Assembly (NCBI GenBank): GCA_012840925.1
Contig: DUVS01000029.1
Span: forward strand, 124,202-188,201
Length of the DNA: 64,000 bases
Direction of reading: 5' to 3'
Origin: Bacillota bacterium
GTDB taxonomy: Bacteria; Bacillota; Limnochordia; Darwinibacteriales; DTU012
In this document: piece after piece, positions 51,725 to 62,966 of the stretch
Layout of the letters: each line of letters opens with the position of its first letter
Position numbering within the stretch: the stretch's first letter is position 1
Position numbers and translations under genes: made by a program
Notes under the pieces: model-generated
Databases searched by the model: none
What the model was told of the DNA's origin: nothing
Seen by the model: only the letters and a program-made list of their open reading frames with translations

Positions 51725-51759
51725 CCAACTAAAGCCATTTGCGGCTTCATTTTGTCTGC

Positions 51760-52088
51760 TAAGTGAATTTATAAGCCGAGTTCTGTCGAGGATGATCATC
51801 TATCTGGGACACTAGTTACCTAATGTCTCATGCGGCCAACCCGAGAGTATAGCGGAACGGGCAATTCCTTCTCCCCTATTTGGCCTTGCTCCGGATGGGG
51901 TTTACCTAGCCGATTAGTCACCTAGTCGCTGGTGAGCTCTTACCTCACCTTTTCACCCTTACCTGTTCAGGCGGTATGTTTCTGTGGCACTTTCCTTAGG
52001 GTTGCCCCCACTGGGTGTTACCCAGCATCCTGCCCTGTGGAGCTCGGACTTTCCTCAGGAATAATCCCGCGATCATCTAATTCACTTA
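51760..52088 (-). ncRNA. rnpB: RNase P RNA (bacterial type A)
   Basis: GAGGAAAGUCCGAGCUC near the 5' end, GUGCCACAGAAA, ACAGAACUCGGCUUAU at the 3' end; P1 helix UAAGUGAAUU/AAUUCACUUA. Confidence 0.96.
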
Positions 52089-60711: not shown

Positions 60712-62307
60712 CTATAGTGGGAATCCGATCGAGAGACGAACACCATGGAACTTGCTGTTGCCATAGTAACGAATGTCGTCGTAACGAGCATTCAGGTCGT
60801 CGTTGTGTACGGATTTGGTTGTTGTAGCATAGTCTACCGAGCTGAGATACTCTAATCTGAACTTAATGCCGTTAGGAGCATCGTATTTCGAGATCAAAGC
60901 GAACTTGAACGGATTCTTGATTAAGTCCTTGTCGCCAGGCATATCGTATGCAAAGATACCGCCGAGATAGAGATTGGGCAGGCGCCATACATCAGCTGTG
61001 GCACCGACTTCAACAGCGGCGATAGCGTGGTAACGGCTGTCGGCAACATAGTTCTTATCCCAGTCGAAGTTGACGATACCTTGGACAAACACATCAGCAA
61101 AGTCTACAGGCAGGCTGTATTGTGGTGTGTAGAAATCCAAAGCATAGTCGAGACGATTCTTGGCACCATCCAGTACTGGCGCACTGTCTCTGGCGGTGGT
61201 ATCGTCATCTAACAGCAGTACGTCAAACTTTTGATTAAGCTCGAAATCTAATGCGGTTGTATTCAGCGATAACGATACGAGATCATCCAAGTCGCCCCGG
61301 GCCTTCGGATTGGTTGTGTCATAGTCGGCTTTCAGTTCTGCTTCAAGGACATCATAAGTAAACTTGTAGGTTGCACCAACATTGATGCTGTTGCCCCGTT
61401 TATAGAGATTTTCAATGGGCTTTGTATCAGCAATGTATCTGGTCTTGCCATCACTTGCATCTGGGCCGCCAAGTACGGATGGCTTATTCCAGGTGCCTTC
61501 CACTTCATTTTCATGATCTTCCCAGAACATGCTGTTGCGATGGCCAGCACGCAGCCACAGTGTTTCTGGAATAACTTCGTAGTCAGCTGTCACTTCATAC
61601 AACCAGTCTTTGTCTTGGCTGTAGAAAGCATACAAACCGGTCAGGGTCAGACCTGGAACGACATCGGTCAATTGAGCTTCTGCAGCTACATTGTAATAGT
61701 AGTCGTAGAGCTTATCCGGATCGCCAGCAACTGGTACTGAATAACGGTTCAGAGCAATATCCAGATCCAGCACATCAGCAATGGTGGAGTCTACATCTAA
61801 CAGAATGTCGTTCATTCTTGGGCCAAAGAAATCGTTAGGGCTACCTTCAACGTCGTCCACATTGTCTGCTAGAGTAACATGGGAGAACATCCAGCCACCT
61901 TGCAGTGCCAAAACAACCGGGCCTAATTCATAGTTGAAAGTCCCGACTGAGAGACCAACAATGCGGCTCTTGCCGTCAAACTTGGCAATGTAAGGTGAAT
62001 AGTTTACAGGCAACCGGGCACCAAACACTGTGTCTACCTCTTGGCCGTCCTCAATGTAGGCACCTTTAACGGTGATGTTCCAAGGACCATTTTTCCCGTT
62101 GATCTTATAGAAAGGCTTTAAGTAACCTTCCTCTGGGAATTCGCCTTCCGAATCGTAGAACAGCTCGTAGACCAAACCCCATTGACCTTTGTCATCGCCG
62201 AATTCCCATTCGGCTGATGGGTACTTAACTTTTTTGGCAGCAAATGCTGACACACTCAATGCTAACACTAACAGTGTTGTCAAGAGTACTAGTGAGATCT
62301 TCCTCAT
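60712..62307 (-). CDS. Secreted protein, putative outer-membrane beta-barrel
   Basis: Sec signal peptide (SVSAFA|AK), many alternating amphipathic strands with aromatic residues, Asp-rich loops, C-terminal HGVRLSIGFPL. Confidence 0.7.
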   Translation of the reverse strand: MRKISLVLLTTLLVLALSVSAFAAKKVKYPSAEWEFGDDKGQWGLVYELFYDSEGEFPEEGYLKPFYKINGKNGPWNITVKGAYIEDGQEVDTVFGARLPVNYSPYIAKFDGKSRIVGLSVGTFNYELGPVVLALQGGWMFSHVTLADNVDDVEGSPNDFFGPRMNDILLDVDSTIADVLDLDIALNRYSVPVAGDPDKLYDYYYNVAAEAQLTDVVPGLTLTGLYAFYSQDKDWLYEVTADYEVIPETLWLRAGHRNSMFWEDHENEVEGTWNKPSVLGGPDASDGKTRYIADTKPIENLYKRGNSINVGATYKFTYDVLEAELKADYDTTNPKARGDLDDLVSLSLNTTALDFELNQKFDVLLLDDDTTARDSAPVLDGAKNRLDYALDFYTPQYSLPVDFADVFVQGIVNFDWDKNYVADSRYHAIAAVEVGATADVWRLPNLYLGGIFAYDMPGDKDLIKNPFKFALISKYDAPNGIKFRLEYLSSVDYATTTKSVHNDDLNARYDDIRYYGNSKFHGVRLSIGFPL

Positions 62308-62430
62308 CGATTTAACTCCTTTTCTCTAATATTCTTTTACCAAACTCCGTTTACGGCAAATAGTTGAAAGCGACTCTTTCTTCTCTTCCAACCCCCCTTT
62401 GGATATGCACAGGCAGTGCATAGCATATTA

Positions 62431-62684
62431 TATTCATCCCTGCCGATATTCGTCATGAATATCATGCGCATGCATCTGCCTTTCTCCAAAAGAGCCGTAC
62501 TTTACCATGTTTCGTACTTCAATTGCTGGAGAAACGCATCGGATTGCCGCAAACTGCAGCGGTTCCTGCAACCTCACTACAGTTCCTGTGCCAGTGTGGC
62601 CGCCTGAATACCTGGCCGCATCAGCGGCTGGCACTTCGGCAGACAACCCTGCAGCGGCTAGAAATGCATGCAGTACAGGGAATA
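62431..62684 (-). ncRNA. Candidate structured RNA / long 5' leader (family unidentified; strand tentative)
   Basis: Nested complementary segments: 62438-62442/62676-62680, 62445-62451/62457-62463, 62468-62475/62664-62671, 62481-62488/62527-62534, 62588-62594/62628-62634. Confidence 0.4.
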
Positions 62685-62848
62685 CGCCTAATATATTCTA
62701 CATTATTTATGGAATACCTTCTCAAAATCGCCAGTTTTTTACTAAAACGGCAAAAAAATGTTTGGAAGGTAATGGTTATCAATTTATTATTCTCTATGCA
62801 CTGGCAAAATCCTTTTAATCTGGAAAATAAATCCATGAATTTTTTACA

Positions 62849-62875
62849 CAAAAAAAACACCACGTTTCGTGGTGT
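62849..62875 (-). terminator. Terminator after the tRNA
   Basis: ACACCACG-AAA-CGTGGTGT then a T tract. Confidence 0.85.
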
Positions 62876-62890
62876 GAAAGACAAGGGATA

Positions 62891-62966
62891 TGGTGGACCC
62901 CCTGGGATTTGAACCCAGGACCAACAGATTATGAGTCTGCTGCTCTAACCGCTGAGCTAGGGGTCC
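62891..62966 (-). tRNA. tRNA with CAT anticodon, most likely tRNA-Ile2 (lysidine-modified)
   Basis: 76-nt cloverleaf GGACCCC...GGGGTCCACCA, loop CTCATAA, GTTCAAA T loop, encoded CCA; sequence and position downstream of rpoD resemble ileX rather than tRNA-Met. Confidence 0.93.

Follow-up and report, generated by a model that had tools for sequence, protein, structure and literature searches.

The gap between a tRNA gene and the gene for a predicted outer-membrane (OM) barrel protein contains a structured RNA that is a new RNA family, limited to a few uncultured Limnochordia lineages. It lies in a window of 64,000 nucleotides, this being the whole stretch of DNA that was analysed. The fold of its core domain is real and structurally conserved, in that the helices P1 and P2 and the hairpin D keep their pairing despite sequence change. 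As to the function, we favour with moderate confidence a structured cis-acting 5' leader of the barrel mRNA, in which the loop at the tip of one arm would be the docking site of a factor and the 5' structure, together with a Shine-Dalgarno-like (SD-like) box, would provide stabilisation; a classical riboswitch is not what we have in mind. The first-pass annotation had proposed a novel leader or riboswitch, or else a non-coding RNA. An unrecognised, conserved and gene-linked RNA on the minus strand is what stands of that proposal, and the classical riboswitch is the part that does not.

On the minus strand, the locus starts with an rpoD-like gene, followed by a tRNA with the anticodon CAT, a terminator, an AT-rich spacer of ca 150 nt, the promoter block, the structured region (ca 62690-62400), a further spacer of ca 90 nt, and finally a strong SD with the ATG at 62307, where the barrel gene begins. 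Apart from this tRNA, the genome has two initiator-type CAT tRNAs and one CAT tRNA with a UUCAUAC anticodon loop, and by elimination the tRNA found here is plausibly Ile2. That the tRNA is terminated and that no terminator separates the structure from the gene had both been stated earlier, and both statements hold: an intrinsic terminator is present behind the tRNA, and no terminator-like site was found on the minus strand between 62857 and 60688. The predicted leader lengths range from 305 to 478 nt across 12 lineages. The coordinates of the individual features are collected in Table 1.

Table 1. Features of the locus in the order in which they are met on the minus strand (positions are those of the window).
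Feature	Position	Strand	Sequence or remark
Upstream tRNA	62966-62891	(-)	anticodon CAT
Intrinsic terminator of the tRNA	62875-62857	(-)	
Predicted sigma-H-type promoter	62695..62719	(-)	AGGTATT 62719-62713, 14-nt spacer, GAAT 62698-62695
Predicted 5' leader	62308..62688	(-)	ca 380 nt; start placed 7-10 nt past GAAT, from the promoter position
Core multibranch domain, closed by P1	62437..62681	(-)	MFE and centroid folds, RNAalifold
P1	62438-62442 with 62676-62680	(-)	CCCTG/CAGGG; full 5' strand 62681-62675, 3' strand 62443-62437
P2, 5' strand	62663..62672	(-)	UGCAUGCAUU; pairs with 62476-62467; helix GCATGCAT/ATGCATGC
Variable arms A and B	62546..62658	(-)	
Arm C	62477..62538	(-)	TTTCTCCA/TGGAGAAA; long irregular hairpin stacked on P2
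Arm C tip hairpin	62497..62517	(-)	GUAC-GAAACAUGGUAAA-GUAC; copy of the class-wide OMP-leader hairpin motif
P2, 3' strand	62467..62476	(-)	GAUGCAUGCG
Hairpin D	62445..62463	(-)	GAUAUUC-AUGAC-GAAUAUC; between P2 3' strand and P1 3' strand
Hairpin E	62405..62421	(-)	AUGCAC-UGCCU-GUGCAU; downstream of the core
SD-like box	62392..62400	(-)	AAAGGGGGG; STAB-SD-like, no reading frame behind
Spacer element	62340..62357	(-)	GCCGUAAACGGAGUUUGG; possible small hairpin, GGA in the loop; kept in most lineages
True Shine-Dalgarno	62323-62316	(-)	AAAAGGAG
Start codon of the barrel gene	62307-62305	(-)	ATG
Gene for 531-aa signal-peptide protein	60712..62307	(-)	predicted large outer-membrane beta-barrel
Terminator 3' of the barrel gene	60688-60653	(-)	

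All the helices listed in the first-pass annotation are present in the sequence, and the folding energy is better than that of shuffled sequences. Namely, the minus strand folds with -119.4 kcal/mol (z = -4.09), none of 100 shuffles being as good, while the plus strand gives -98.4 (z = -2.69). Several of the pairs are G-U on the minus strand, which makes the RNA reading strand-specific. The independent MFE folds of the 12 lineages give one and the same architecture, with z-scores of -4.70, -4.33 and -4.83 for three divergent members.

In this architecture, the domain is closed by P1 (UCCC/GGGA), of which CCC/GGG is kept in 11 lineages, lineage L151 having CUCU/GGAG instead. A short linker leads to P2, which measures between 10 and 14 bp and occurs in the variants GCAUGCAU, UCAUGCAU, CAUAUAUGC, CAUAUGC, CAUAUAC and, at 14 bp, GUGUUUUGCAUUGC. 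P2 encloses the arms A, B and C. Arm A is formed by GTGCCAG/CTGGCAC around CCGC/GCGG and is cleanly deleted in G001 and G002. Arm B, which carries the conserved GUGAGGUUGNAGGAACCG (62577-62560), is kept in genus g1, G008 and L158, and in L153 and L156 the arms A/B are shortened or replaced. Arm C appears in the MFE folds of 11 lineages and in a short version in G008. Hairpin D, a perfect helix of 7 bp, holds a constant place with a varied sequence (GAUAUUC, AGAAUACUU, AGAGGUA, CAGAUAU, UACCAUC). G003 and L129 have lost it entirely, and elsewhere it is, by hand register, fully compensated. Hairpin E is kept in genus g1, where its base covaries between UA and CG, and other lineages have a different hairpin at that place.

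Covariation was evaluated on a structure-blind MAFFT alignment of the 12 lineages, many of which are closely related. The cells that pair amount to 76.6%, compared to 72.2% for shuffled columns (a value of 76.6% is reached by 0 of 500) and to 41-49% for slid partners. The covariation score is 0.263, compared to 0.211 for the shuffled columns (again reached by 0 of 500) and to 0.11-0.16 for the slid ones, and a model-fitted alignment leads to the same pairing and covariation figures. Covariation among homologous intergenic regions, which had been named earlier as a check on the structure, is thus present. The count of pairs changed on both sides is, taken alone, not beyond shuffles (92/500). 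For P2, 91.5% of the cells pair in the MAFFT alignment and five pairs are changed on both sides; by hand register, compensatory types occur at all 10 of the 10 positions. It should be pointed out that MAFFT misaligns hairpin D, and only 58.5% of its cells pair there.

The RNA could not be matched to a known family in the first-pass annotation, and it remains unlike any of them: with Rfam 15, positions 62250-62900 return no family at E <= 10, only a chance match to SNORD95 (17.7 bits vs 55), and over the whole window only RNase P and the tRNA are found. In BLASTN, the intergenic region is matched over its full length in four further genomes of the genus, with identities of 67-83%. A large protein collection contains 16 clusters of homologues of the 531-aa protein, of which one is named Limnochordia. 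DNA was fetched around ten protein-cluster homologues and around the G008 homologue, from a second genus, which resulted in the 12 distinct lineages with the RNA. The RNA is found upstream of every fetched homologue of the barrel gene, in a constant synteny of rpoD, the tRNA, sometimes a 97-aa ORF, a long gap with the RNA, the barrel gene, an Rce1-like gene and FTHFS. The 97-aa ORF is located between the tRNA and the RNA in other genera and is missing in this genome.

Two covariance models were used to delimit the family. Model R1 finds all homologues except that of L151, where the match is misplaced and the RNA was recognised by eye, and model R2 finds all 12 lineages with 96-206 bits. Both give one copy per genome in the same 6 of the 95 class genomes, corresponding to 2 of 52 genera, and the RNA is absent from the 89 other Limnochordia genomes. 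These six genomes are the same six that have the barrel gene among the 41 relatives searched. A scan of genome contigs with 18-mers yielded chance matches and the same genus only, and one of metagenomes with 23-mers likewise the same genus only, with one added variant, L129. The linkage of the RNA to the barrel gene is strict.

The 531-aa protein has a signal-peptide-like N-terminus and no match in Pfam. Its AF2 model is nearly all beta, with about 26 strands, a pLDDT of 68 and a pTM of 0.60. Among the 50 matches listed by Foldseek against the PDB, almost all are OM barrels, one being a mitochondrial SAM barrel, at low TM values of 0.21-0.37; they include Occ porins, Deinococcus SlpA, LptD, MtrB, ushers and TonB-dependent transporters. 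Judged from this model, the protein is plausibly an outer-membrane beta-barrel as a fold class. The gene had been called porin-like, and of this name the barrel is plausible, while "porin" goes beyond the evidence.

Upstream of the structure, AGGWNTT-N14-GAAT is present with exact spacing in all 12 lineages. Promoters of SigH are described as AGGA and GAAT at a distance of 17-18 nt (PMC12456013). The element found here reads AGGT-17 nt-GAAT; G008 has AGGA, and the fourth base is T and not A in most lineages. In this genome, the motif has 35 matches compared to 7.4 expected, i.e. an enrichment of ca 5-fold, 28 of them being outside long open frames, and it is also found upstream of sigH (NF006148, 244.7 bits), spoIIAA, hpf and spoVT. 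In Bacillus subtilis, both the spoIIA operon and yvyD/hpf depend on sigma-H. We infer from these observations that the promoter is of the sigma-H type, and a promoter of this type would place the RNA, and probably the barrel gene, in the transition-state or early-sporulation programme.

The TAGAAT hexamer that the first-pass annotation had singled out is indeed located at 62700-62695; it is, however, not a sigma-70 -10 box, but part of the conserved element that we read as a sigma-H-type promoter. A sigma-70 promoter TTGAGA-19-TAGAAT was considered and rejected, since the -35 sequence TTGAGA is not conserved outside genus g1. The consensus boxes of sigma-F, -E and -G were also considered, and they misfit in both sequence and spacing. 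A sigma-70-like match, ATGACG-18-TATAAT (62456-62427), is situated inside the structure, and AT-rich boxes that resemble a -10 are found near the true SD. In view of these sites the barrel gene may have a promoter of its own, the candidate boxes not being conserved across all lineages; at the internal site, which was discarded, TATAAT is lost in the divergent lineages.

Directly past hairpin E, all 12 lineages have an AAAGGRGGG box, in the form of either AAAGGGGGG or AAAGGAGG, which is predicted to be about half unpaired. The box precedes the AUG by 90-110 nt in 11 lineages, the distance in G008 being 172 nt. Neither a start codon nor an ORF is conserved behind it across the 12 lineages, and reading the region as a small ORF was rejected, as the ORFs are broken by non-triplet indels and by deletions of whole hairpins. 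Another option considered was that the leader sequesters the true SD. This was also rejected, as there is no consistent pairing across the lineages: no conserved helix hides the true SD, and its predicted accessibility varies between 0.07 and 0.74 among the lineages with no constant partner.

The SD-like box can be compared to that of the cry3A mRNA of Bacillus thuringiensis, in which RNase J1 is blocked by a 30S subunit that sits on an SD without an ORF (STAB-SD), ca 125 nt upstream of the start codon (PMC4113751). The cry3A leader likewise measures several hundred nt and comes from an endospore-forming Bacillota lineage (Agaisse & Lereclus 1996; PMC4113751), and in both cases a (near-)perfect SD-like sequence without an ORF is located ca 100-130 nt before the real start codon. 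Unlike in cry3A, the upstream ca 260 nt are here a conserved, covarying multibranch domain, and the promoter appears to be of the sigma-H type. The box thus resembles a STAB-SD stabiliser, the parallel being one of sequence only.

Within the RNA, conservation is highest at the tip of arm C, GUAC-GRAACAUGGUAA(A)-GUAC. Its loop is invariant in 10 of the 12 lineages and reads GGAACAAGGCAAG in L151. It is absent in G008, which keeps the domain, and this lineage counts against a docking role of the loop. A pseudoknot between the loop and J1/2 was examined, but the pairing of CCAUGUUC with GAACAUGG seen in L153 and L156 is not conserved elsewhere. The AUG of the loop was also considered as the start of an uORF, and this was rejected, several lineages having AAG or AGG instead. 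When the genome was scanned for complements of the loop, the sole perfect match was the antisense of its own locus, and no convincing trans target was found.

A second locus in this genome, C2:121606, has the same promoter type and a structured leader of 353 nt (z = -3.79), with a perfectly conserved GGAAAGGAGGUGACAG and a long hairpin that is tipped by UGAG-GAAACAUGGAUA-CUCA. This leader precedes the gene for a 453-aa signal-peptide protein ending in AVKF. The 453-aa and 531-aa proteins were considered as paralogues and rejected as such (BLASTP E = 0.017, over 33 aa only). With a 29-nt hairpin model, R3, the top two matches in each genus-g1 genome are these two leaders, with 27-33 bits, and the next ones have at most 24 bits. 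At a class-wide cut-off of E <= 0.05 per genome, R3 has matches in 64 of the 95 Limnochordia genomes, and among the loci listed nearly all of them are located 85-200 nt upstream of genes for signal-peptide proteins. These genes code for SLH/OmpM-like proteins of ca 475 aa, a family of ca 395 aa with a weak OMP_b-brl match, and relatives of the 453-aa protein. One R3 match, in G009, is a real SD with its ATG, and the motif thus also resembles the context of a start site. Eight related OMP-leader loci were searched against Rfam and gave no match.

The recurrence of the loop before OMP genes is a hint that envelope proteins are under a common control. Since simple hairpins in other OMP leaders have this loop as well, a trans-acting factor would be expected rather than a small ligand. 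To our knowledge, CsrA has not been linked to OMP genes in the Bacillota. It is a candidate in terms of the motif: the loop consensus is GRAACANGGNNA on a 4-bp stem, with ACA-N-GGA in most of the class-wide copies. This matches the SELEX consensus of CsrA, RUACARGGAUGU, a short-stem hairpin whose loop contains both ACA and an invariant GGA (PMC7652899). The arm C loop of the present RNA, GAAACAUGGUAAA, has the ACA but fails on the GGA, which is replaced by GGU (GGC in L151). A csrA gene is present in this genome (PF02599, 93.5 bits, G000:C2:90411-90566) as well as in 85 of the 95 class genomes, and being nearly universal in the class its presence is uninformative. In the hag mRNA of Bacillus subtilis, CsrA binds two sites, one in a 5' hairpin loop and one over the SD (PMC7652899). 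The leader is like CsrA-bound leaders in the 4-bp stem, the ACA-N-GG in the loop, the GGA in the true SD, the presence of csrA, and the repetition of the motif over functionally related mRNAs. It differs from them in that the arm C hairpin is ca 210 nt away from the start codon, inside a large domain, and has GGU/GGC in the loop.

Taken further, these observations can be read tentatively, as a possibility that we hold with less confidence than the leader assignment itself, in terms of a post-transcriptional OMP regulon that spans the Limnochordia, a class of diderm Firmicutes. It would comprise the OmpM-like SLH proteins, several barrel families and the gene studied here, and the hairpin GRAACANGGNNA would be read by a single factor, be it CsrA, another protein or an sRNA. 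The domain of 260 nt would then be a specialised scaffold that presents this factor or competes for it during a stationary-phase/sporulation transition controlled by sigma-H.

The mechanism that we propose for the leader is as follows. Transcription would start from the sigma-H-type promoter AGGTATT-N14-GAAT, ca 380 nt before the ATG, and the leader would be co-transcribed with the barrel gene. The first ca 260 nt fold as shown by the covariation, with P1 closing the domain, P2 stacking on arm C, A and B being variable, and D located past P2. The leader would act in cis and post-transcriptionally. The tip loop of arm C, GRAACAUGGUAA, would be the docking site for a trans-acting factor common to the OMP leaders, for which CsrA is the leading candidate, even though its consensus GGA is missing in this copy. 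Finally, the 5'-proximal structure and the SD-like box would protect the mRNA, a bound 30S subunit blocking the 5'-exonuclease as at a STAB-SD. A 5' stabiliser, however, needs no 260-nt multibranch domain with conserved junction sequences, which leaves part of the function unexplained.

A number of other explanations were weighed against this mechanism. The region could instead give rise to an sRNA of ca 290 nt, dependent on sigma-H and either cleaved from the leader or separately terminated, that acts in trans, for example as a sponge for the factor of the OMP hairpins, the barrel mRNA starting at or being trimmed to the SD-like box. In favour of such an sRNA, P1 closes off a compact domain whose conservation exceeds that of the spacer, possible downstream promoters are present, and the position of the box right past hairpin E parallels cry3A, whose long primary transcript is trimmed just upstream of the STAB-SD (PMC4113751). 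We nevertheless consider this a live but unlikely rival, as the structure has no terminator behind it, the synteny and co-occurrence with the barrel gene are strict, and the loop has no convincing complementary target in the genome. We give somewhat less credit to a passive leader, in which the 5' structure and the STAB-SD-like box ensure mRNA stability with no regulatory input and the shared loop is a site of processing or ribosome contact. Such a leader would fit with the predicted 5' end, only a few nt from a very stable domain, with the conserved SD-like box, and with the similarity of the loop, GAAAC-AUG-G, to the genome's own start-codon context, the R3 match in G009 being a real start site. 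The loop does not keep its AUG, though (L151 has AAG, and many OMP leaders have AGG or AAG), and an invariant loop of 12-13 nt in non-homologous leaders across the class would be left unexplained.

An aptamer for a metabolite or ion, sensing a solute linked to the channel and controlling the barrel gene, is quite improbable in our judgement. It could be argued for on the basis of a complex conserved junction with conserved unpaired stretches, directly 5' of a putative channel gene, in an RNA that matches no known family. Against this, there is one copy per genome, always with one gene family and in 2 of the 52 genera of the class, and the lack of an expression platform (neither a terminator nor a conserved SD-sequestering helix, and a spacer of ca 95-170 nt between the domain and the SD), together with the restriction to one gene in one narrow lineage, makes a classical riboswitch unlikely. 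Moreover, large arms are gained and lost among the lineages, and the best-conserved loop is common to simple hairpins before unrelated OMP genes. Hardly any weight is left for the view that the region does not act as RNA at all and owes its conservation to control sites in the DNA, to a degenerate coding remnant or to the scar of a mobile element. At the DNA level, the part next to the promoter is highly conserved, and the 97-aa ORF of other genera is missing here, but compensatory changes keep the pairing, the G-U pairs work on the minus strand only, the indels take out hairpins in their entirety and have lengths other than multiples of three, and there is a single copy per genome.

The cis-acting leader that we prefer can also be set beside other known RNAs. 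Long structured leaders of major envelope-protein genes are found in the 5' UTR of E. coli ompA and in the S-layer genes of Lactobacillus and Thermus, where they are taken to stabilise the mRNA and to offer a site of post-transcriptional control. The present leader has no homology to these in sequence or structure, and it is much larger and branched; we know of no sRNA/Hfq logic like that of ompA in this lineage. With T-box, raiA, OLE, HEARO, GOLLD and ROOL it has in common a length of 200-300 nt, junctions of several stems and loops that are conserved, but unlike these it has no Rfam match at E <= 10 and is associated with one gene in one narrow lineage.

The diderm Firmicutes are a test case for the gain and loss of outer membranes, and the regulation of their OMPs is almost unknown. 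The locus provides a well-supported new structured RNA family and a short hairpin that marks OMP leaders class-wide, and the predicted promoter class would link at least two OMP-leader genes to the sigma-H transition-state/sporulation programme. If the hairpin motif is the binding site of a factor, it would define an envelope regulon with a logic like that of the sigma-E/sRNA control of omp mRNAs in Proteobacteria, built from different parts. Should this regulon be true, outer-membrane remodelling would be timed to stationary phase and sporulation, when a diderm spore-former needs it.

The genome contains, outside the window, a second long structured leader (locus L160 on contig C2; see table), of 353 nt and with a folding z of −3.79. 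Its promoter, AGGACTT-N14-GAAT, is of the same sigma-H type as that of the RNA, the probable structured leader of the gene for a predicted 531-aa beta-barrel protein. The L160 leader is conserved across the five genomes of the genus (71–78% identity), and within it GGAAAGGAGGUGACAG is perfectly conserved; it also contains the hairpin UGAG-GAAACAUGGAUA-CUCA. The gene on its 3' side encodes a 453-aa signal-peptide protein that ends in AVKF.

A hairpin motif with the stem UGAG/CUCA and the loop GRAACANGGNNA is also found in other Limnochordia genomes (loci L198-L221, L174, L175 and L187), 85–200 nt 5' of genes for OmpM-like SLH-domain proteins and for other predicted OMPs. The motif was detected in 64 of the 95 genomes of the class and has no Rfam entry. 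It resembles a CsrA binding site.

The 531-aa protein (window 60712-62307) and the 453-aa protein of C2, both OMP-like, are not detectably related apart from a short C-proximal motif, (Y/F)DAPNGI. This motif recurs in OMP-like proteins of 392–452 aa from other Limnochordia, as EAPNGIN, TAPNGIE and NAPNGMT, and may be a lineage-specific barrel-assembly signal.

Within the structure of the RNA lies a genus-specific, sigma-70-like site that overlaps hairpin D and the A/U-rich linker. It could be a second start site, one whose transcript would carry hairpin E at its 5' end.

The assembly has only 34 tRNAs, with no tRNA-Ile(GAT) among them. Four carry a CAT anticodon, and since two of these are initiator-type and another, with the anticodon loop UUCAUAC, is probably the elongator Met, the one in the window is probably tRNA-Ile2. 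The RNase P RNA (bacterial class A, 312.5 bits) is ordinary.

Features and their positions (C2, C20 and C50 are contigs of the same genome)
Feature	Position	Strand	Gene or context
AGGWNTT-N14-GAAT	C20:76030		sigH
AGGWNTT-N14-GAAT	C20:44471		spoIIAA
AGGWNTT-N14-GAAT	C2:92349		hpf
AGGWNTT-N14-GAAT	C50:72450		spoVT
AGGWNTT-N14-GAAT	C2:42645		
AGGATTT-N14-GAAT	window 62790-62815	minus	~100 nt 5' of the RNA's promoter
ATGACG-18-TATAAT	window 62427-62456	minus	within the RNA
L160 leader	C2:121587-121987		
CAT-anticodon tRNA	window 62891-62966		
RNase P RNA	window 51756-52088	minus	

A further sigma-H-type motif, AGGATTT-N14-GAAT, precedes the RNA's promoter. The corresponding site of other genera stands before a 97-aa ORF of unknown function, located between the tRNA and the RNA, which is missing from this genus. 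Genome-wide, AGGWNTT-N14-GAAT is enriched ca 5-fold, with 35 sites, five of them given in the table as examples, that fall mainly outside long open frames. The 35 sites constitute an initial draft of a sigma-H regulon for this Limnochordia MAG, which takes in the sigH gene and several proteins that are secreted or belong to the envelope.
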